A stretch of DNA of 64,000 nt from Escherichia coli (lineage in GTDB: Bacteria; Pseudomonadota; Gammaproteobacteria; Enterobacterales; Enterobacteriaceae). The stretch lies in the NCBI RefSeq assembly GCF_003334765.1, contig NZ_QOWT01000003.1. One strand, written 5' to 3'. This document shows positions 20,647-34,600 of this stretch, piece after piece (position 1 is the first letter of the stretch; each line of letters begins with the position of its first letter). Made by a program: the position numbers and the translations under genes. A model generated the notes under the pieces. The model made no database searches. It was not told the origin of the DNA and was given only the letters and a program-made list of their open reading frames with translations.

Positions 20647-22041
20647 TTAATCGTGAGCGCCGATTTCGCGCAGTTTACGACCTTTCATCAGATTACGTTC
20701 AATATGTTCCAGCGAAACGTGTTTGGTTTCCGGTACCAGCCACAATGTCAGCAGGATAAACAGTACGTTCAGAGCAGCATACACCCAGAAGGTGTTGGCG
20801 TTACCCAGCGTGTTGAGCATGGTCAGGAACGTTGCGCCAACGATCATGTTGGCAATCCAGTTGGTGGCAGTGGAGCAGGTGATGCCAAAATCGCGGCCTT
20901 TCAGCGGCTGAATTTCGGAGCACAGTACCCAAATCAGCGGACCGGCACTCATGGCAAAACCGACAATAAACATCAGCAGCATGGCGATGGCGAAATACTG
21001 CGCCGACGGAGAGTGGATACCGATATGCATCATTGTACCGAGTACGCCCATACCAGCAGCCATCACCAGGAAGCCCAGCGTTAGCGTTGGTTTACGTCCC
21101 CAGCGGTCAACAAGGCCGATTGCGATAAAGGTGGCAAGTACGTTGGTCAGGCCGACAATCACTGTCCCCCACATTTGCTCGGTGGTGTTGGTATAACCCG
21201 CCAGTTCGAAGATTTTCGGCGCGTAATACATGATGACGTTCATCCCGGTGAATTGCTGCATTACCTGCAATAGTACGCCAAGGAACACCGCGCGGCGGAA
21301 GTTGCTATTCTCTTTAAACAGCGCCCAGCCACTCTGTTTAACCTGCAAACTTTCACGGATTTCATCCAGTTCGCGTTTCGCTTCCGCGCTGGTGTCACGC
21401 AGGCGTAGCAGCACGCGTTCGGCATCAACAAAACGGCGTTTGGCGGCAAACCAACGTGGGCTGTCTGGCAGGAAGAAGACACCAATCAGCAGCAAAATTG
21501 CCGGGATGATAATCACACCCAGCATCCAGCGCCATGCACCGGTGTAGCTGAAGGCGGTATCAGAAAGATAAGCGCCGAGGATCCCGATAGTGATCATCAA
21601 CTGATACATCGAGATCATACTGCCGCGAATTTTTTCCGGCGCAATTTCAGAGAGGTACAGCGGTGCGGTATAAGAGGCCACACCCACTGCCAGCCCCAGC
21701 AAAACGCGGGAAAGAATCAGTACTTCAACGTTTGGCGCAGCAGCAGAGAACAGTGAACCGGCAACAAACAAGATTGCGCCGATCATCAGGCTCTTTTTGC
21801 GCCCGAGTTTAAAGGAGAGCCAGCCGCTGCCCACCGCACCGACTGCCGCACCGAACATCATGGAGCTTACGACCCATTCTTGCGTGTGCGAAGTAATCTG
21901 GAATTCATCTGCAATAAACGGCAGTGCGCCAGCAATTACACCGATATCCAGGCCAAAGAGTAATCCCGCCAGAGCGGCAAGGAAGCAGACGAAAAACGTC
22001 ATTGCCTTGTTTGACCGCCCCTGTTTTTTAGCGTCAGGCAT
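20647..22041 (-). CDS. galP: galactose:H+ symporter GalP (464 aa), MFS sugar porter
   Basis: [42 protein letters not shown]... recognised. Confidence 0.96.
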
Positions 22042-22104
22042 GATGCCCTCCAATATGGTTATTTTTTATTGTGAATTAAGATAGGTGAGTACGACGTAAA
22101 AAGA

Positions 22105-22139: not shown

Positions 22140-22426
22140 TAACATTTATCTTAGTTATGATTTAAGTGCATGAAAATAATTGAGTTATATCATCATAGAT
22201 TAAACGCTGTTATCTGCAATTAAGACTTTACTGAAAAGAAATGTAACAACTGTGAAAACCGAATAATAATATGAAAATATTACAAATCTTTGTCTGGTGT
22301 GGTTGGTGTAATCGGTTTCAGTAGCGATGATAATTTGCGGTAAAACGTGTTCAGGAAGAATGATGTTATTGTGCGGGCAGCTTTTTGCCGGATGCCGCGT
22401 GAACGCCTATCCACCGCGGTGAGGTA

Positions 22427-22454
22427 AAAGAAAAAGGCCAGCGCGAGGCTGGCC
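22427..22454 (-). terminator. metK rho-independent terminator
   Basis: GGCCAGCGCGAGGCTGGCC hairpin with T-run on the minus strand (AAAGAAAAA on plus), 23 nt after metK stop. Confidence 0.75.
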
Positions 22455-22476
22455 TTTGAAAGCAGGTGAAGAAAGA

Positions 22477-23631
22477 TTACTTCAGACCGGCAGCATCGCG
22501 CAGCAGCTGCGCTTTGTCGGTTTTTTCCCACGGGAAATGTTCGCGACCAAAGTGACCGTATGCTGCGGTTTCTTTGTAGATCGGGTGCAGCAGATCCAGC
22601 ATCTGAATCAGACCGTATGGACGCAGGTCAAAGAACTCACGTACCAGCAGAGTCAGTTGTTCAGAAGGCACTTTCTCGGTACCGAAAGTTTCCACCATGA
22701 TAGAGGTCGGTTCAGCCACGCCGATTGCGTAGGAAACCTGAATTTCACAACGATCGGCCAGGCCAGCAGCAACGATGTTTTTCGCGACATAACGTGCTGC
22801 GTACGCTGCGGAACGGTCCACTTTTGATGGATCTTTACCAGAGAATGCACCACCACCGTGACGTGCCATGCCGCCGTAGGTATCAACGATAATTTTACGA
22901 CCAGTCAGACCGCAGTCACCCATCGGGCCACCGATAACAAAACGACCGGTCGGGTTGATGAAGAATTTGGTGGCAGAAGTCAGCCATTCAGCCGGCAGAA
23001 TCGGCTTGATGATCTCTTCCATTACCGCTTCTTGCAGCGATTTCTGGTCGATTTCTTCAGAGTGCTGAGTGGAAAGCACGACAGCATCGATACCAACGAT
23101 TTTGCCGTCGTCATACTGGAAAGTCACCTGGCTTTTCGCGTCCGGGCGCAGCCACGGCAGAGTGCCGTTTTTACGCACTTCAGCCTGACGCTGTACCAGA
23201 CGGTGTGCATAGGTGATAGGCGCTGGCATCAGCACGTCGGTTTCATTGGTTGCGTAGCCAAACATCAGACCCTGGTCACCCGCGCCCTGTTCCAGCGGAT
23301 CGGCACGGTCAACGCCCTGGTTGATGTCAGGAGACTGTTTGCCGATAGCGCTCAGAACCGCACAGGAGTTAGCGTCAAAGCCCATGTCGGAATGTACATA
23401 GCCAATTTCGCGAACGGTGTTACGGGTGATCTCTTCGATGTCTACCCAGGCGCTGGTGGTGATTTCGCCGCCAACTAAAACCATGCCGGTTTTTACGTAG
23501 GTTTCGCAAGCAACGCGTGCTTTCGGATCCTGTTCGAGGATCGCGTCTAAAACGGCATCAGAGATTTGGTCAGCAATTTTGTCAGGATGCCCTTCAGAGA
23601 CGGACTCGGACGTAAAAAGGTGTTTTGCCAT
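22477..23631 (-). CDS. metK: S-adenosylmethionine synthetase (384 aa)
   Basis: [51 protein letters not shown]... recognised. Confidence 0.98.
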
Positions 23632-23671
23632 ATTTAATATCACCTAAAGAGAATTTGGTTAGCTCAAACTG

Positions 23672-23938
23672 TTGTGTGGATTTTCTGTGGTAGCGGATCC
23701 TACCACGACTCTGCAGGTTAAAAACACTGGCAGTCTGAGTGTTAATCGGTATGGATGGATTAACATCTGGATGGCTATTTTAGGTCAGTTCTTCACCCAA
23801 TTTCCACTTTTTTTTGAATCGTGTCTCATTCTGTTAAAAACGTGGCTGGAAATTTTTCCTGACAATGCTGGCATTCTGCGTATTTATCTTTTGCAATTTT
23901 CTGCCATTGTGGGGTATAAAACGCGGCGCGCGGCTTAA
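23672..23938 (+). CDS. yqgD: small hypothetical ORF upstream of and antisense to the metK promoter side; candidate yqgD
   Basis: 88-aa ORF in the position where K-12 annotates an 83-aa hypothetical yqgD; no independent coding evidence. Confidence 0.3.
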
Positions 23939-24150
23939 ATAAAAAGCACACGACGTTTCTTTCGTGTTGCCACTTCCAGCCGGGTTGAAATCAGAGTTTT
24001 GGCTTGTGGGTTCGTCTTAACAGGCGGCCGTGGAGGTGATACGAAATAATGAACCGTTGTCTGCTGCTTAACCTGTCTCACCGTTCTGGTGAAGATTCGT
24101 TCCCCGCACTCTGCATCTCTGCTTTGCATACCTGCCGATGTTATACCCAT
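23935..24150 (-). CDS. yqgC: small hypothetical ORF, candidate yqgC (71 aa)
   Basis: ORF of exactly 71 aa where K-12 annotates 71-aa yqgC; weak coding evidence. Confidence 0.35.
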
Positions 24151-24285
24151 CTCGGCGCTTCTCAGGATTCAAGAGCTGGTTACAGTTACTGAGGACTGAA
24201 CAAGGGCGCTCTTGTAAAAACAAGAGTTTTCTCGTGGTTTCGCCGAACTGTCACACTTACGTTCGGTTATGTGCTTAATAATGTT

Positions 24286-24417
24286 ATGAAAAAGAAACCG
24301 GTTGCGCAGTTGGAGCGTCAGCATTCACTGCTGGAAAATCCATGTGCTTATGGGTTGTTATCGCAGTTCCAGGCTGCGATAGTCGTTAACTGTTTTACAC
24401 TTAATAAAATAATTTGA
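24286..24417 (+). CDS. yqgB: small protein YqgB (43 aa), immediately upstream of speA
   Basis: ATG AAA AAG AAA CCG GTT GCG CAG... translates to [43 protein letters not shown]; stop 8 nt before the speA ATG; not in ORF track because under 60 aa. Confidence 0.8.
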
Positions 24418-24425
24418 GGTTCGCT

Positions 24426-26402
24426 ATGTCTGACGACATGTCTATGGGTTTGCCTTCGTCAGCGGGCGAACACGGTGTACTACGCTCCATGCAGGAGGTT
24501 GCAATGAGCTCCCAGGAAGCCAGCAAGATGCTGCGTACTTACAATATTGCCTGGTGGGGCAATAACTACTATGACGTTAACGAGCTGGGCCACATTAGCG
24601 TGTGCCCGGACCCGGACGTCCCGGAAGCTCGCGTCGATCTCGCGCAGTTAGTGAAAACTCGTGAAGCACAGGGCCAGCGTCTGCCTGCACTGTTCTGTTT
24701 CCCACAGATCCTGCAGCACCGTTTGCGTTCCATTAACGCCGCGTTCAAACGAGCGCGGGAATCCTACGGCTATAACGGCGATTACTTCCTCGTTTATCCG
24801 ATCAAAGTTAACCAGCACCGCCGCGTGATTGAGTCCCTGATTCATTCGGGCGAACCGCTGGGCCTGGAGGCCGGTTCCAAAGCGGAGTTGATGGCGGTGC
24901 TGGCACATGCTGGCATGACCCGTAGCGTCATCGTCTGCAACGGTTATAAGGACCGCGAATATATCCGCCTGGCATTAATTGGCGAGAAGATGGGCCACAA
25001 GGTCTATCTGGTCATTGAGAAGATGTCAGAAATTGCCATTGTGCTGGATGAAGCAGAACGTCTGAATGTCGTTCCTCGTCTGGGCGTGCGTGCACGTCTG
25101 GCTTCGCAGGGCTCGGGTAAATGGCAGTCCTCTGGCGGGGAAAAATCGAAGTTCGGCCTGGCGGCGACTCAGGTACTGCAACTGGTTGAAACGCTGCGTG
25201 AAGCCGGGCGTCTCGACAGCCTGCAACTGCTGCACTTCCACCTCGGTTCGCAGATGGCGAATATTCGCGATATCGCGACAGGCGTTCGTGAATCCGCGCG
25301 TTTCTATGTTGAGCTGCACAAGCTGGGCGTCAATATTCAGTGCTTCGACGTCGGCGGCGGTCTGGGCGTGGACTATGAAGGCACCCGTTCGCAGTCCGAC
25401 TGTTCGGTGAACTACGGCCTCAATGAATACGCCAACAACATCATCTGGGCGATTGGTGATGCGTGTGAAGAAAATGGTCTGCCGCATCCGACGGTAATCA
25501 CCGAATCGGGTCGTGCGGTGACTGCGCATCACACCGTGCTGGTGTCGAATATCATCGGCGTGGAACGTAACGAATACACGGTGCCGACCGCGCCTGCAGA
25601 AGACGCACCGCGCGCCCTGCAAAGCATGTGGGAAACCTGGCAGGAGATGCACGAACCGGGAACTCGCCGTTCTCTGCGTGAATGGTTACACGACAGCCAG
25701 ATGGATCTGCACGATATTCATATCGGCTACTCTTCCGGCACCTTTAGCCTGCAAGAACGCGCATGGGCTGAGCAGCTTTATTTGAGCATGTGCCATGAAG
25801 TGCAAAAGCAGCTGGATCCGCAAAACCGTGCTCATCGTCCGATTATCGACGAGCTGCAGGAACGTATGGCGGACAAAATGTACGTCAACTTCTCGCTGTT
25901 CCAGTCGATGCCGGATGCGTGGGGGATCGACCAGTTGTTCCCGGTTCTGCCGCTGGAAGGGCTGGATCAAGTGCCGGAACGCCGCGCTGTGCTGCTGGAT
26001 ATTACCTGTGACTCTGACGGTGCTATTGATCACTATATTGATGGTGATGGTATTGCCACGACAATGCCAATGCCGGAGTACGATCCAGAGAATCCGCCGA
26101 TGCTCGGTTTCTTCATGGTCGGCGCATATCAGGAGATCCTCGGCAACATGCACAACCTGTTCGGTGATACCGAAGCGGTTGACGTGTTCGTCTTCCCTGA
26201 CGGCAGCGTAGAAGTAGAACTGTCTGACGAAGGCGATACCGTGGCGGATATGCTGCAATATGTACAGCTCGATCCGAAAACGTTGTTAACCCAGTTCCGT
26301 GATCAAGTGAAGAAAACCGATCTTGATGCTGAACTGCAACAACAGTTCCTTGAAGAGTTCGAGGCAGGTTTGTACGGTTATACCTATCTTGAAGATGAAT
26401 AA
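24426..26402 (+). CDS. speA: biosynthetic arginine decarboxylase (658 aa)
   Basis: [55 protein letters not shown]... recognised. Confidence 0.97.
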
Positions 26403-26419
26403 TTAAGATTATTCCGCTG

Positions 26420-26460
26420 GCGGGTCGATTTATTTACGTAAATCGGCCCGCTTTCTTTTT
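26420..26460 (+). terminator. rho-independent terminator after speA
   Basis: GCGGGTCGATTTATTTACGTAAATCGGCCCGC hairpin followed by TTTCTTTTT. Confidence 0.75.
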
Positions 26461-26547
26461 ATATATTCTTAAAAATAATTTAGCTGCTTTTCTTATTAAA
26501 TAATCCCCCTACAATCGCTGCATTAATTAAATACAGAGGGAACGGTT

Positions 26548-27279
26548 ATGAAAAAATGGAAAGTACGTAGCGCGTTGATAGCATTAGTCGTGCTGCTGGC
26601 CGGTTGTTCCAGTAATGCGCAGTATAATAGCAGTACATCGGGCAATGTCGGCACCGCCTGGGGTGGGGATGTGCACTCATCGGTTCAGGGCGTATCTGCT
26701 GAGCGAGCCTGGCGCGATCCGGCAGAGATGATCGTTATTAGTTATTCGACTACTGTTCCTTCGGGCTACGACCGCGTTTATAGCATTCGTATTAACGAAC
26801 TGGAATATGCTATTCGCGATGGTAATTTTAATTCTCTACCTATTACGCGGGTTTATGATTCATCCAATAATGAACCACGCTATATTGTCCATGCCAGAAT
26901 CGGAATGAATTATCAATTATATATCCGTAATTACAGTCGTAACACCAACTACGAGATCGTTGCTACGGTTGATGGCCTGGATGTGCTGAACGGCAAGCAA
27001 GGTTCGCTGAATAACAATGGCTATATTGTGAATGCCGGAGATTCGTTAGCGATTAAAGGATTCCGCAAAGATAAACATACCGAAGCGGCTTTTCAGTTCG
27101 CCAACGTTGCTGATTCCTACGCAGCCAATTCGGCGCAAGGCGATGTGCGTAATACCGGTGTAATCGGCTTTGCCGCCTTTGAATTACAAGGCACGGCGCA
27201 AAACGCGCTGCCACCGTGCTCTGGACAAGCGTTTCCGGCGGACAACAATGGCTATGCGCCGCCACCGTGTCGGAAATAG
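26548..27279 (+). CDS. uncharacterised lipoprotein (243 aa), not part of K-12 gene order as I know it
   Basis: RBS GAGGGA 8 nt upstream of ATG; signal peptide and lipobox MKKWKVRSALIALVVLLAG-C; N/Y/S-rich body; C-terminal ALPPCSGQAFPADNNGYAPPPCRK with two PPC motifs; lower GC than flanking genes; flanked by terminators. Confidence 0.75.
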   Translation: MKKWKVRSALIALVVLLAGCSSNAQYNSSTSGNVGTAWGGDVHSSVQGVSAERAWRDPAEMIVISYSTTVPSGYDRVYSIRINELEYAIRDGNFNSLPITRVYDSSNNEPRYIVHARIGMNYQLYIRNYSRNTNYEIVATVDGLDVLNGKQGSLNNNGYIVNAGDSLAIKGFRKDKHTEAAFQFANVADSYAANSAQGDVRNTGVIGFAAFELQGTAQNALPPCSGQAFPADNNGYAPPPCRK

Positions 27280-27346
27280 TAACCTCGCTTGATGCCTCGC
27301 CCATTTAAGGCGATAATTAGCACAAAATTGTGTTTCGCAAATCCAA

Positions 27347-27387
27347 CCCTTCCTCGTCGGGCCTAACGACGCGGAAGGGTTTTTTTA
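27347..27387 (+). terminator. rho-independent terminator after the lipoprotein gene, abutting the speB RBS
   Basis: CCCTTCCTCGTCGG-GCCTAA-CGACGCGGAAGGG hairpin followed by TTTTTTT. Confidence 0.75.
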
Positions 27388-27414
27388 TATCGACTTTGTA
27401 ATAGGAGTCCATCC

Positions 27415-28335
27415 ATGAGCACCTTAGGTCATCAATACGATAACTCACTGGTTTCCAACGCCTTTGGTTTTTTACGCCTGCCGATGAACTTCCAGCCGTA
27501 TGACAGCGATGCTGACTGGGTAATTACCGGCGTGCCGTTCGATATGGCCACTTCTGGTCGTGCGGGTGGACGCCACGGTCCGGCGGCGATCCGTCAGGTT
27601 TCGACGAATCTGGCCTGGGAACACAACCGCTTCCCGTGGAATTTCGACATGCGCGAGCGTCTGAACGTGGTGGACTGCGGCGATCTGGTGTATGCCTTCG
27701 GCGATGCTCGTGAGATGAGCGAGAAGCTGCAGGCGCATGCCGAAAAGCTGCTGGCTGCCGGTAAGCGTATGCTCTCCTTCGGTGGTGACCACTTTGTTAC
27801 CCTGCCGCTGCTGCGTGCTCATGCGAAGCATTTCGGCAAAATGGCGCTGGTACACTTTGACGCCCACACCGATACCTATGCGAACGGTTGTGAATTTGAC
27901 CACGGCACCATGTTCTATACCGCGCCGAAAGAAGGTCTGATCGACCCGAATCACTCCGTACAGATTGGTATTCGTACCGAGTTTGATAAAGACAACGGCT
28001 TTACCGTACTGGACGCCTGCCAGGTGAACGATCGCGGCGTGGATGACGTTATCGCCCAAGTGAAACAGATTGTGGGTGATATGCCGGTTTACCTGACCTT
28101 TGATATCGACTGCCTGGATCCTGCTTTCGCGCCGGGAACCGGTACGCCAGTAATTGGCGGCCTGACCTCCGATCGCGCTATTAAACTGGTACGCGGCCTG
28201 AAAGATCTCAACATTGTTGGGATGGACGTAGTGGAAGTGGCTCCGGCATACGATCAGTCGGAAATCACCGCTCTGGCTGCGGCGACGCTGGCGCTGGAAA
28301 TGCTGTATATCCAGGCGGCGAAAAAGGGCGAGTAA
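27415..28335 (+). CDS. speB: agmatinase (306 aa)
   Basis: [61 protein letters not shown]... recognised. Confidence 0.97.
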
Positions 28336-29141: not shown

Positions 29142-29418
29142 GTTTTCTCTTCCGCACAAGGTCAGGATTATTCTAAAAATGCGCCGTTTGCAGGTGAATC
29201 GACGCTCAGTCTCAGTATAAGGAAAAGCGCAGCGGACGGGCGAGCAGATTGCGCAACATGCGAGCATGATCCAGAGATTTCTGAAGCGGCAAAAGGATGT
29301 TCCATGTACATGACGCGCGGCTTGCGGTAAATTGTTGGCAAATTTTCCGGCGTAGCCCAAAACGCGCTGTCGTCAAGTCGTTAAGGGCGTGCCCTTCATC
29401 ATCCGATCTGGAGTCAAA

Positions 29419-31410
29419 ATGTCCTCACGTAAAGAGCTTGCCAATGCTATTCGTGCGCTGAGCATGGACGCAGTACAGAAAGCCAAATCCGGTCACCCGG
29501 GTGCCCCTATGGGTATGGCTGACATTGCCGAAGTCCTGTGGCGTGATTTCCTGAAACACAACCCGCAGAATCCGTCCTGGGCTGACCGTGACCGCTTCGT
29601 GCTGTCCAACGGCCACGGCTCCATGCTGATCTACAGCCTGCTGCACCTCACCGGTTACGATCTGCCGATGGAAGAACTGAAAAACTTCCGTCAGCTGCAC
29701 TCTAAAACTCCGGGCCACCCGGAAGTAGGTTATACCGCTGGTGTGGAAACCACCACCGGTCCGCTGGGTCAGGGTATTGCCAACGCAGTCGGTATGGCGA
29801 TTGCAGAAAAAACGCTGGCGGCGCAGTTTAACCGTCCGGGCCACGACATTGTCGACCACTACACCTACGCCTTCATGGGTGACGGCTGCATGATGGAAGG
29901 CATCTCCCACGAAGTTTGCTCTCTGGCGGGTACGCTGAAGCTGGGTAAACTGATTGCGTTCTACGATGACAACGGTATCTCTATCGATGGTCACGTTGAA
30001 GGCTGGTTCACCGACGACACCGCAATGCGTTTCGAAGCTTACGGCTGGCACGTTATTCGCGACATCGACGGTCATGACGCGGCATCCATCAAACGCGCAG
30101 TAGAAGAAGCGCGCGCAGTGACTGACAAACCGTCCCTGCTGATGTGCAAAACCATCATCGGTTTCGGTTCCCCGAACAAAGCCGGTACCCACGACTCCCA
30201 CGGTGCGCCACTGGGCGACGCTGAAATTGCCCTGACCCGCGAACAGCTGGGCTGGAAATATGCACCGTTCGAAATCCCGTCTGAAATCTATGCTCAGTGG
30301 GATGCGAAAGAAGCAGGCCAGGCGAAAGAATCCGCATGGAACGAGAAATTCGCTGCTTACGCGAAAGCTTATCCGCAGGAAGCCGCTGAATTTACCCGCC
30401 GTATGAAAGGCGAAATGCCGTCTGACTTCGACGCCAAAGCGAAAGAGTTCATCGCTAAACTGCAGGCTAACCCGGCGAAAATCGCCAGCCGTAAAGCGTC
30501 TCAGAATGCGATTGAAGCGTTCGGCCCGCTGTTGCCGGAATTCCTCGGCGGCTCTGCTGACCTGGCACCGTCTAACCTGACCCTGTGGTCTGGTTCTAAA
30601 GCAATCAACGAAGATGCTGCGGGTAACTACATCCACTACGGTGTTCGCGAGTTCGGTATGACCGCGATTGCTAACGGTATCTCCCTGCACGGTGGCTTCC
30701 TGCCGTACACCTCCACCTTCCTGATGTTCGTGGAATACGCACGTAACGCCGTACGTATGGCTGCGCTGATGAAACAGCGTCAGGTGATGGTTTACACCCA
30801 CGACTCCATCGGTCTGGGCGAAGATGGCCCGACTCACCAGCCGGTTGAGCAGGTCGCTTCACTGCGCGTGACCCCGAACATGTCTACATGGCGTCCGTGT
30901 GACCAGGTTGAATCTGCAGTGGCATGGAAATACGGCGTTGAGCGTCAGGACGGCCCGACTGCGCTTATCCTCTCCCGTCAGAACCTGGCGCAGCAGGAAC
31001 GTACTGAAGAGCAGCTGGCAAACATCGCGCGCGGTGGTTATGTGCTGAAAGACTGTGCCGGTCAGCCGGAACTGATCTTCATCGCGACCGGTTCTGAAGT
31101 TGAACTGGCGGTTGCTGCCTACGAAAAACTGACTGCTGAAGGCGTGAAAGCGCGCGTGGTTTCCATGCCGTCTACCGACGCGTTCGACAAGCAGGATGCG
31201 GCTTACCGTGAGTCTGTACTGCCGAAAGCGGTTACTGCACGCGTTGCGGTGGAAGCGGGTATTGCTGACTACTGGTACAAGTATGTTGGCCTGAACGGTG
31301 CTATCGTCGGCATGACCACCTTCGGTGAATCTGCTCCGGCAGAGCTGCTGTTTGAAGAGTTCGGCTTCACCGTTGACAACGTTGTTGCGAAAGCAAAAGA
31401 ACTGCTGTAA
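29419..31410 (+). CDS. tktA: transketolase 1 (663 aa)
   Basis: [41 protein letters not shown]... recognised; GGAG RBS. Confidence 0.98.
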
Positions 31411-33211: not shown

Positions 33212-34600
33212 ATGGAAAACAAGTCTGCTCGTGCAAAGGTCCAGGCTTTTGGGGGCTTTTTGACGGCAATGGTCATCCCCAATATCGGTGCTTTTATTGC
33301 CTGGGGTTTTATTACTGCATTATTTATTCCTACTGGTTGGCTGCCGAATGAACATTTCGCCAAAATTGTCGGCCCGATGATTACCTATTTATTGCCCGTG
33401 ATGATTGGTTCTACCGGTGGTCATCTGGTCGGCGGTAAACGCGGCGCGGTCATGGGCGGAATTGGTACGATTGGTGTGATCGTCGGCGCAGAGATCCCGA
33501 TGTTCCTTGGCTCAATGATTATGGGGCCGCTCGGTGGGCTGGTCATAAAATATGTCGATAAGGCACTGGAAAAACGCATACCTGCTGGTTTTGAGATGGT
33601 TATCAATAACTTCTCATTAGGTATCGCGGGGATGCTCCTTTGTCTGCTGGGTTTTGAAGTGATCGGCCCGGCGGTGTTAATTGCCAATACTTTCGTCAAA
33701 GAGTGTATTGAGGCGCTGGTACATGCGGGTTATCTGCCTCTGCTGTCAGTCATCAATGAACCGGCGAAAGTGCTTTTCCTTAATAATGCGATCGATCAGG
33801 GCGTCTATTATCCGCTGGGAATGCAACAGGCTTCGGTTAACGGTAAATCCATCTTCTTTATGGTGGCCTCTAACCCAGGTCCGGGCCTGGGGCTGCTGCT
33901 GGCGTTTACCTTGTTTGGTAAAGGGATGAGTAAACGTTCTGCGCCCGGGGCGATGATTATTCACTTCCTCGGTGGGATCCACGAACTGTATTTCCCATAT
34001 GTGCTGATGAAGCCGCTGACTATTATTGCCATGATTGCGGGCGGTATGTCTGGCACCTGGATGTTTAACTTACTGGACGGTGGTCTGGTGGCTGGCCCAA
34101 GTCCGGGGTCTATCTTTGCTTACCTGGCGCTGACGCCGAAAGGTTCGTTCCTGGCGACAATTGCCGGTGTTACGGTAGGTACCCTGGTGTCCTTTGCTAT
34201 CACTTCGCTGATACTGAAGATGGAAAAAACGGTGGAAACGGAGAGCGAAGATGAGTTTGCTCAGTCAGCCAATGCGGTTAAGGCGATGAAACAAGAGGGT
34301 GCATTCTCGTTAAGCCGGGTTAAGCGTATCGCCTTTGTTTGCGATGCGGGGATGGGCTCCAGCGCGATGGGCGCAACCACCTTCCGTAAACGTCTGGAAA
34401 AAGCGGGGCTGGCAATTGAAGTAAAACATTACGCGATAGAAAACGTGCCTGCGGATGCGGATATCGTCGTTACTCATGCCAGTCTGGAAGGGCGCGTGAA
34501 ACGTGTGACGGATAAATCACTGATATTGATTAATAACTATATTGGCGATCCAAAACTCGACACTTTATTTAATCAATTAACCGCAGAACATAAACACTGA
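33212..34600 (+). CDS. cmtA: PTS EIICB component, mannitol-family (cryptic), 462 aa
   Basis: 462-aa polytopic ORF with C-terminal EIIB domain (CDAGMGSSAM). Confidence 0.9.
   Translation: MENKSARAKVQAFGGFLTAMVIPNIGAFIAWGFITALFIPTGWLPNEHFAKIVGPMITYLLPVMIGSTGGHLVGGKRGAVMGGIGTIGVIVGAEIPMFLGSMIMGPLGGLVIKYVDKALEKRIPAGFEMVINNFSLGIAGMLLCLLGFEVIGPAVLIANTFVKECIEALVHAGYLPLLSVINEPAKVLFLNNAIDQGVYYPLGMQQASVNGKSIFFMVASNPGPGLGLLLAFTLFGKGMSKRSAPGAMIIHFLGGIHELYFPYVLMKPLTIIAMIAGGMSGTWMFNLLDGGLVAGPSPGSIFAYLALTPKGSFLATIAGVTVGTLVSFAITSLILKMEKTVETESEDEFAQSANAVKAMKQEGAFSLSRVKRIAFVCDAGMGSSAMGATTFRKRLEKAGLAIEVKHYAIENVPADADIVVTHASLEGRVKRVTDKSLILINNYIGDPKLDTLFNQLTAEHKH

Follow-up and report, generated by a model that had tools for sequence, protein, structure and literature searches.

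Two small reading frames between metK and speA of Escherichia coli are probably fortuitous frames over back-to-back promoters and a structured speA leader

The 654-bp interval between the metK ATG (position 23631, minus strand) and the start of yqgB (24286) in Escherichia coli is best read as a back-to-back control region, serving metK in one direction and yqgG-yqgB-speA in the other, in which the two small open reading frames yqgD and yqgC are fortuitous frames and not genes; we assign this reading a probability of roughly 0.78. Along its course yqgD appears to run antisense over the metK 5' UTR, a MetJ met-box array and the metK -10 and -35 elements, and then over the -35 and -10 elements of speA. 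The functional RNA of the interval would be the speA leader, about 498 nt long (23928-24425), consisting of a 5' hairpin, a junction, yqgG, a hairpin with a U-tract, and yqgB abutting speA. The yqgC frame arises where the first 220 nt or so of this leader are read on the reverse strand.

Locus and annotation

The window, meaning the whole stretch of 64,000 nucleotides that was analysed, is E. coli chromosome, with galP and metK to the left of the interval and yqgB, speA and speB to the right. Table 1 collects the features. An earlier note, made from the letters of the window, had described two small frames of 88 and 71 codons with overlapping stop codons between metK and yqgB, and had equated them with yqgD and yqgC of K-12. 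The ORF list returns both at the same coordinates, and the RefSeq and K-12 annotations agree with the identification. Two bases are shared by the stop codons: that of yqgD is the TAA at 23936-23938, and that of yqgC is read from 23935-23937 on the complementary strand. RefSeq, for an identical E. coli strain and for K-12 MG1655, places yqgD exactly here as an 83-residue product from the GTG at 23687. This frame is annotated by PGAP and carries the label DUF2684 in K-12; yqgC is annotated in K-12 only, and PGAP omits it elsewhere. The uORF yqgG, which sits antisense to yqgC, and the start of the speA transcript within the 3' end of yqgD were both absent from the earlier note.

Table 1. Features of the metK-speA region in window coordinates
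Feature	Position	Strand	Basis or remark
galP	20647-22053	-	annotation
metK, methionine adenosyltransferase	22477-23631	-	ATG at 23631; ORF list, annotation
metK 5' UTR (inferred), about 139 nt, SD AGGTGA	23632-23770	-	-10 position, conservation, SD
yqgD ORF	23672-23938 (88 aa, TTG) or 23687-23938 (83 aa, GTG)	+	ORF list, RefSeq
Four tandem met-box-like octamers (putative MetJ operator of metK)	23745-23776	.	just downstream of -10
metK core promoter (predicted)	23777-23818	-	promoter scan, conservation
metK -10, TAAAAT	23782-23777	-	promoter scan
metK -35, TGGAAA	23806-23801	-	18-bp spacer to -10
Conserved A-tract upstream of metK -35	23808-23818	-	conservation
speA promoter (predicted)	23891-23928	+	sequence, conservation
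speA -35, TTGCAA	23891-23896	+	18-bp spacer follows
speA -10, TATAAA	23915-23920	+	GC-rich discriminator follows
speA TSS, G	about 23928	+	cloning primer of Adams et al.
yqgC ORF, 71 aa, ATG, b2940	23935-24150	-	ORF list; K-12 annotation
Hairpin H1, near leader 5' end	23946-23970	+	double changes at 4 of 6 pairs
Three-way junction	23971-24038	+	RNAalifold, covariation
Junction closing helix CACUUCCA : UGGAGGUG	23971-23978 : 24031-24038	+	includes yqgG SD
Inner hairpins of junction	23979-24011 and 24012-24027	+	
yqgG uORF, 47 codons, b4784	24049-24192	+	annotation (K-12, PGAP)
Hairpin CUCUUG-loop-CAAGAG, then UUUUCUCGU	24209-24235 (hairpin 24209-24226)	+	between yqgG and yqgB
Helix GGUUUC : GAAACC	24236-24241 : 24294-24299	+	encloses the next hairpin and the yqgB start region
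Hairpin CCGA..UCGG	24243-24266	+	covaries
yqgB uORF / small protein, 43 aa	24286-24417	+	annotation, NCBIfam NF033844
speA, biosynthetic arginine decarboxylase	24426-26402	+	ORF list, annotation
speB	27415-	+	

The lengths of the two frames are unremarkable for DNA of this composition. When the 794-bp metK-speA spacer (23632-24425) was shuffled 2000 times with dinucleotides preserved, the longest ORF reached at least 88 residues in 32% of the shuffles, and two ORFs of at least 71 residues were present in 24%. The sizes of yqgD and yqgC are no greater than chance (P = 0.24-0.32).

Coding tests on the two frames

A scan for SpeA with one genome per species returned 80 Enterobacteriaceae loci, and the 76 of these with metK and speA as divergent neighbours form the comparative set. 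The divergent arrangement is kept in all 76 orthologous loci, across a spacer of 633-1039 bp; outside Escherichia the spacer shows 62-84% identity, with near-invariant blocks inside it. Only three of the 76 loci have an intact yqgD, all in Escherichia (E. coli, E. whittamii and one more species), and Escherichia sp. E1V33 carries an in-frame nonsense codon. The length of the ORF in the yqgD frame ranges from 21 to 168 codons across species, reaching at least 70 codons in 19 of 63, and a stop-free frame of yqgD-like length persists in Salmonella and Kluyvera. Intact yqgC is confined, among the same 76 loci, to the four Escherichia sequences; in most genera a stop is first met between codons 2 and 55, the truncation in Salmonella and Citrobacter being at about codon 55, and in other genera stops abound in the frame. 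Every E. coli sampled keeps the yqgD frame open, as does E. whittamii.

Substitution patterns were compared by the Nei-Gojobori method against Salmonella, Citrobacter, Kluyvera, Enterobacter and Klebsiella. The dN/dS ratio was 0.73-1.23 for yqgD, 0.61-1.25 for yqgC, 0.27-0.65 for yqgG and 0.01-0.04 for speA. Purifying selection on both yqgD and yqgC, which the earlier note would have taken as a sign of real proteins, is thus not what the ratios indicate: they lie around 1 and not well below it. Within Escherichia the ratio for yqgD was 1.9 against E1V33; against one further sequence, L003, it was 0.3, a value that comes from six substitutions only. Apparent dS for the small ORFs is 0.2-0.5, far under the value of about 0.9-1.1 for speA, and the DNA must therefore be constrained independently of reading frame. 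Synonymous changes make up just 10% of codon differences from E. coli in yqgD and 16% in yqgC, with stop codons filling 77 and 143 cells of the respective alignments. Entropy by codon position is flat in yqgD (0.77/0.79/0.75), while variation in the first ten codons of metK is almost entirely at third positions (0/0.01/0.42). No 3-nt periodicity of variation was found in any of the four small ORFs, yqgG and yqgB included; codon periodicity alone is unable to separate real uORFs from spurious ORFs, and per-codon synonymous counts were used instead.

Signals of translation and of family membership are missing as well. No Shine-Dalgarno sequence precedes the GTG at 23687 or the TTG at 23672 of yqgD, nor the start of yqgC; yqgG, by contrast, is preceded by GGAGGTGAT, which contains one. 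YqgD matches nothing in current Pfam-A even at E<=10, DUF2684 included, and none of the NCBIfam models. The earlier note had also looked to ribosome occupancy, and published profiling found no ribosome density on yqgC in treated or untreated cells; SPA-tagged YqgC was not observed, while tagged YqgG was detected (Weaver et al. 2019, bioRxiv 10.1101/511675). Reviews list yqgC with a "potential SOS box". SOS regulation was considered for yqgC and set aside: 23500-24500 contains no CTG-N10-CAG, and yqgC and yqgD transcripts show no SOS induction (PMC11002266). We judge yqgD, from its sequence record, to be probably a chance ORF and not a gene, and we judge yqgC to be spurious, a shadow on the strand opposite yqgG and the speA leader.

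Promoters and operator under yqgD

The earlier note had placed one of the frames antisense to the likely metK promoter and leader, and this is borne out for yqgD, which overlies the metK 5' UTR, the met boxes and the -10 and -35 elements. Over its 5' third yqgD reads antisense to the metK 5' UTR, and this stretch (23672-23725) is its least conserved part, at 39-68%. The adjoining block, 23727-23790, hardly varies among the 76 species. The -10 element suggests a metK transcription start near 23770, and the met-box array lies just downstream of that element. The array has 18 of 32 matches to (AGACGTCT)x4, the second-best score in the 64-kb window and above the 99.99th percentile; each box is degenerate, with 4-5 of 8 matches to AGACGTCT, yet the array is nearly invariant across the 76 species. 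As an array of two or more tandem 8-bp repeats at a met-regulon promoter it has the make-up of a MetJ operator and probably is one; metK is among the known met-box genes of E. coli, with boxes conserved in 119 of 122 Enterobacteria (PMC3228920).

The only well-conserved "peptide" of YqgD, SLSVNxYGWINIWxAILG, is this invariant operator and promoter DNA in translation. The other two frames have stops within the invariant core, and any ORF that crosses it must therefore use the frame of yqgD.

At its 3' end yqgD passes over the speA promoter, the elements of which are all conserved, and an invariant block spans 23911-23935. The primer used by Adams et al. (PMC7815308) to clone the speA 5' UTR begins GCGCGGCTTAAATAAAAAGC, which is window position 23928. 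This published start places the transcript start at about 23928, inside the 3' end of yqgD. The yqgD stop codon thus falls at +9 to +11 of speA mRNA.

Structure of the speA leader

RNAalifold was applied to alignments of 55 and 69 non-identical orthologues, with explicit counts of pairs made in addition. The predicted structure opens with hairpin H1 and continues into a three-way junction with many conserved G-U pairs. None of 500 column shuffles of either alignment reached the observed covariation score. In both alignments 97-99% of cells are paired, vs 26-60% once the partners have been displaced by 1-3 columns; for the 5'-domain alignment the figures are 96.7% and, in slid controls, 33-55%. 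The inner hairpin at 24012-24027 shows compensatory double changes at four of five pairs. The Shine-Dalgarno sequence of yqgG, GGAGG at 24032-24036, is paired within the predicted closing helix; this anti-SD helix is invariant in 55 sequences, and covariation is unable to confirm it. A single-sequence fold of the 5' domain agrees with the junction, with a marginal z of -1.5 against shuffles; support for the structure comes from covariation and not from energy.

Downstream of yqgG, the hairpin at 24209-24226 has compensatory changes at all five stem pairs, with U-G in 27 sequences, and together with its U-tract (to 24235) resembles a terminator or attenuator, for which it is a candidate. The Term-seq data of Adams et al. 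list no RNA 3' end at this hairpin, none being given between K-12 positions 3085854 and 3086295. A trp-style antiterminator pairing CAAGAGC (24170-24176) with GCUCUUG (24208-24214) was considered and dropped: the segments are complementary in E. coli, and inspection by eye shows most other species carrying substitutions (CCAGGGC) that weaken the pairing. The GGUUUC:GAAACC helix is invariant, so covariation speaks neither for nor against it. A scan of 22400-27500 against Rfam 15 at E<=1 gave nothing relevant, the one match being a chance hit at the metK terminator.

On the other strand the G-U and U-G cells in these stems would turn into A-C mismatches, and the structures therefore belong to plus-strand RNA rather than a yqgC transcript. 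Those "residues" of YqgC that are conserved (MGITSAG... and ...TTVHYxVSPP...) are the mirror image of two parts of yqgG, its conserved 3' half and its SD and AUG.

RNA 3' ends and Rho

Experimental evidence already in the literature bears on this leader. The speA 5' UTR is subject to Rho-dependent termination, with a fusion and a northern both responding to rhoR66S and a Rho score of 3.1 (PMC7815308), and a strong short speA 5' fragment has been reported (Adams et al., PMC7815308). A Term-seq 3' end at K-12 position 3086295 (Adams et al. supplement) corresponds to window position 24042, on a coordinate map checked against the K-12 annotation. It falls 4 nt past the three-way junction and defines a 5' leader fragment of about 115 nt. 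A second 3' end lies 57 nt into speA, at about codon 19, and yqgB-speA was flagged as a uORF/3'-end pair (Adams et al., PMC7815308). Deletion of yqgB in Salmonella lowers speA and speB mRNA, as expected for a cis-acting leader.

The uORFs yqgG and yqgB

The yqgG ATG is kept in 75 of 76 loci and is preceded by a strong SD. Conservation at the amino-acid level is concentrated in codons 28-44 (24130-24180), a 17-residue C-terminal motif, where 65% of differences are synonymous, compared with 22% in codons 1-27 and 3-26% in other frames. Arg42, for example, is encoded by AGG, AGA, CGG or CGA. These counts point to selection on the amino-acid sequence of the YqgG C-terminal motif. The leader has a single C-rich, G-poor stretch, at 24058-24160 inside yqgG (C/G about 1.7), which may be its Rho-utilisation site. 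The downstream uORF yqgB keeps its ATG and has no internal stop in all 76 loci, ends 8 nt before the speA ATG, and scores 90 bits against NCBIfam NF033844, for which the cutoff is 35.

A mechanism can be proposed in which translation of yqgG is gated by pairing of the junction with its SD. With the SD sequestered, or yqgG otherwise untranslated, Rho would load on the naked C-rich stretch and terminate transcription, after which exonucleases might trim the RNA back to the junction and leave the fragment of about 115 nt that ends at 24042. With yqgG (and yqgB) translated, or with a ribosome paused at the YqgG C-terminus, Rho would be excluded and speA transcribed. The coupling of yqgG translation to Rho termination, the rut site and any ligand are all inferred. 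As a tentative proposal, with the odds against it, 23946-24038 (the first 110 nt or so of speA mRNA) could be a cis-regulatory RNA domain, a conserved junction rich in invariant G-U pairs and loop residues, that gates yqgG by pairing with its SD, and 15 residues of the conserved YqgG C-terminus could form a metabolite-sensitive arrest peptide that responds to arginine, agmatine or a polyamine, the two together setting Rho-dependent termination and arginine decarboxylase synthesis across the Enterobacteriaceae.

Alternative explanations

The frames might instead encode small proteins of recent origin, restricted to Escherichia and born de novo on the strand antisense to regulatory DNA, the hydrophobic YqgD being a small membrane protein and YqgC perhaps a second protein of this kind. 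In favour are the intact ORFs of E. coli, E. whittamii and a third member of the genus, the annotation of yqgD by PGAP, and the dN/dS of 0.3 against L003, which comes from only six substitutions. Every one of the 5426 complete E. coli genomes also carries the queried stretch at 95% identity or more, and 5421 of them at 99% or more; within-species identity is high, however, because regulatory elements overlap every part of both ORFs. We consider de novo proteins improbable, given the nonsense codon and the dN/dS of 1.9 in E1V33, the chance-level ORF length, the failure to detect YqgC experimentally, and the want of an SD, with the only promoter match, 9 of 12, lying inside metK. The suggestion of the earlier note that the frames may reflect regulatory RNA rather than proteins is supported in its second half, with intact frames confined to Escherichia, dN/dS near 1, stops frequent and YqgC undetected. 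Its first half is imprecise: under yqgD the conserved signal is promoter and operator DNA of metK and speA, while under yqgC the functional RNA runs along the opposite strand, as the leader of speA.

Two forms of antisense RNA deserve consideration in this connection. One, the sense in which the earlier note had read the locus, is a cis-antisense RNA from the yqgD strand that covers the metK 5' UTR and start and controls metK mRNA. Plus-strand RNA from about 23655 onward would be antisense to the metK leader, and a weak sigma-70-like match occurs on that strand at 23625-23654; but the segment antisense to the UTR is the very part of yqgD that is conserved least, the block that is conserved falls on the -10, TSS and met boxes, Rfam returns no match, and the Term-seq lists examined from Adams et al. 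show no plus-strand 3' end between metK and the speA TSS. Such an RNA seems very improbable. The other is a non-coding minus-strand transcript in the yqgC direction, stopped at 23967-23938, that acts as an excludon-type antisense regulator of speA. Read on the minus strand, H1 with its T-run (23967-23948) does have the look of an intrinsic terminator that faces the metK promoter, and it sits precisely where yqgC ends; in RNA-seq data, ExcludonFinder includes yqgG-yqgC among its overlapping pairs. That listing, however, depends on the yqgC annotation, and the promoter scan gives no minus-strand match upstream of 24150. The conserved G-U pairs place the structures on the plus strand, and in H1 itself, read on that strand, G-U cells outnumber A-C cells 23 to 9. 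We therefore regard a minus-strand regulator as unlikely, and favour a control region in which the plus-strand leader of speA is the functional RNA.

Implications

On these grounds yqgC, annotated in K-12, and yqgD, which PGAP has carried into thousands of E. coli genomes, are doubtful genes, and transcriptomic or genetic "hits" to them (in SOS lists, in the fluoride response, in deletions of yqgB/yqgC) more plausibly reflect changes at the metK promoter or in the speA leader. Much of this picture is already published: the metK met boxes, the uORFs, the long leader with its Rho regulation and the questioned standing of yqgC have all been described. What is added here is modest: the evidence against yqgD, a leader structure backed by covariation, and the conserved C-terminal motif of YqgG. 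The comparative data give a testable anatomy for a leader that may couple uORF translation to Rho, the mechanism having been left open by the study that established Rho dependence.

Comparison with known systems

The two frames resemble the shadow ORFs described in K-12 (Weaver et al. 2019) in being short, without an SD and with dN/dS about 1, in lacking ORF conservation across genera, and in having conserved "residues" that coincide with elements of the other strand. The difference is that yqgD overlaps two promoters and an operator and not a coding gene. In keeping with the MetJ-repressed promoters (metK, metA, metBL/J, metE/R, metF, metNIQ), the metK promoter here has four tandem AGACGTCT-like repeats overlapping its apparent transcript start, the boxes of this putative operator being degenerate, at 4-5 of 8 matches each.

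The order of elements in the speA leader recalls the trp, his and pheA attenuators, with the yqgG leader peptide followed about 17 nt on by a conserved stem-loop and U-tract. YqgG differs from those leader peptides in having no run of regulatory codons, and the hairpin at 24209 differs in that Term-seq detected no RNA 3' end there (Adams et al.).

Another parallel is found in the mdtU-mdtJI and speFL-speF leaders. The speA leader shares with them a long 5' UTR, Rho-dependent premature termination, a polyamine link and a translated uORF conserved at its C-terminus. It differs in having two uORFs, yqgG and yqgB, neither similar in sequence to SpeFL or MdtU, together with a structured 5' domain that is predicted to pair with the first SD. 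With a long, Rho-terminated 5' UTR, known from the literature, and a translated uORF with a conserved C-terminus, the speA leader is a candidate member of the leaders controlled by a uORF and Rho. By analogy with mdtU and speFL, control of speA by a uORF, possibly through ligand-dependent arrest, would resemble the regulation described for those systems.

Elements between metK and speA

A single hairpin in the control region between the divergent metK and yqgG-yqgB-speA genes possibly has two roles, one for each strand. On the plus strand it forms the covarying 5' hairpin of speA mRNA, while on the minus strand a T-run lies 3' of it, giving the appearance of an intrinsic terminator that looks placed to keep leftward transcription off the metK promoter.

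Features in the window, with coordinates
Feature	Coordinates	Strand	Remark
Conserved island	23852-23861		AAATTTTTCC
Hairpin	23948-23967		
YqgG codons 28-44	24130-24180	+	C-terminal motif
243-aa ORF	26548-27279	+	speA-speB gap; lipoprotein-type signal (…LLAGCSS…)
High met-box score	~29409-29440		17/32
High met-box score	~33219-33250		19/32

The otherwise variable spacer separating the metK promoter from the speA promoter also contains a short island, 87% conserved, at about -70 relative to the speA transcription start and -85 relative to the inferred metK start. It may represent a transcription factor site or an UP-like element.

Besides the met boxes of metK, the crude four-box score is high at two further places in the window. 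The consensus is weak, and these are probably chance matches.

An ORF between speA and speB

K-12 lacks the 243-residue ORF and has about 137 bp between speA and speB; in other E. coli the ORF is labelled simply "hypothetical protein". Its occurrence is patchy, being limited to 11 of about 77 Enterobacteriaceae loci, from Escherichia spp., some Citrobacter, Klebsiella spallanzanii, Kluyvera georgiana and Phytobacter. No NCBIfam model matched it above cutoff.

Small ORFs

The RefSeq name for K-12 YqgD (b2941; 5400-5651 in L002, the K-12 locus) is "DUF2684 domain-containing protein". Even with the threshold relaxed to E<=10, YqgD matches no family in current Pfam-A; the family behind the label may have been dropped from that collection.

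The C-terminal motif of YqgG, encoded in the speA leader, is kept in 76 species through synonymous changes, with Arg42 encoded by AGG, AGA, CGG or CGA, whereas codons 1-27 drift freely. A conserved C-terminus behind a drifting N-terminus is a pattern reminiscent of MdtU, SpeFL and similar regulatory arrest peptides.
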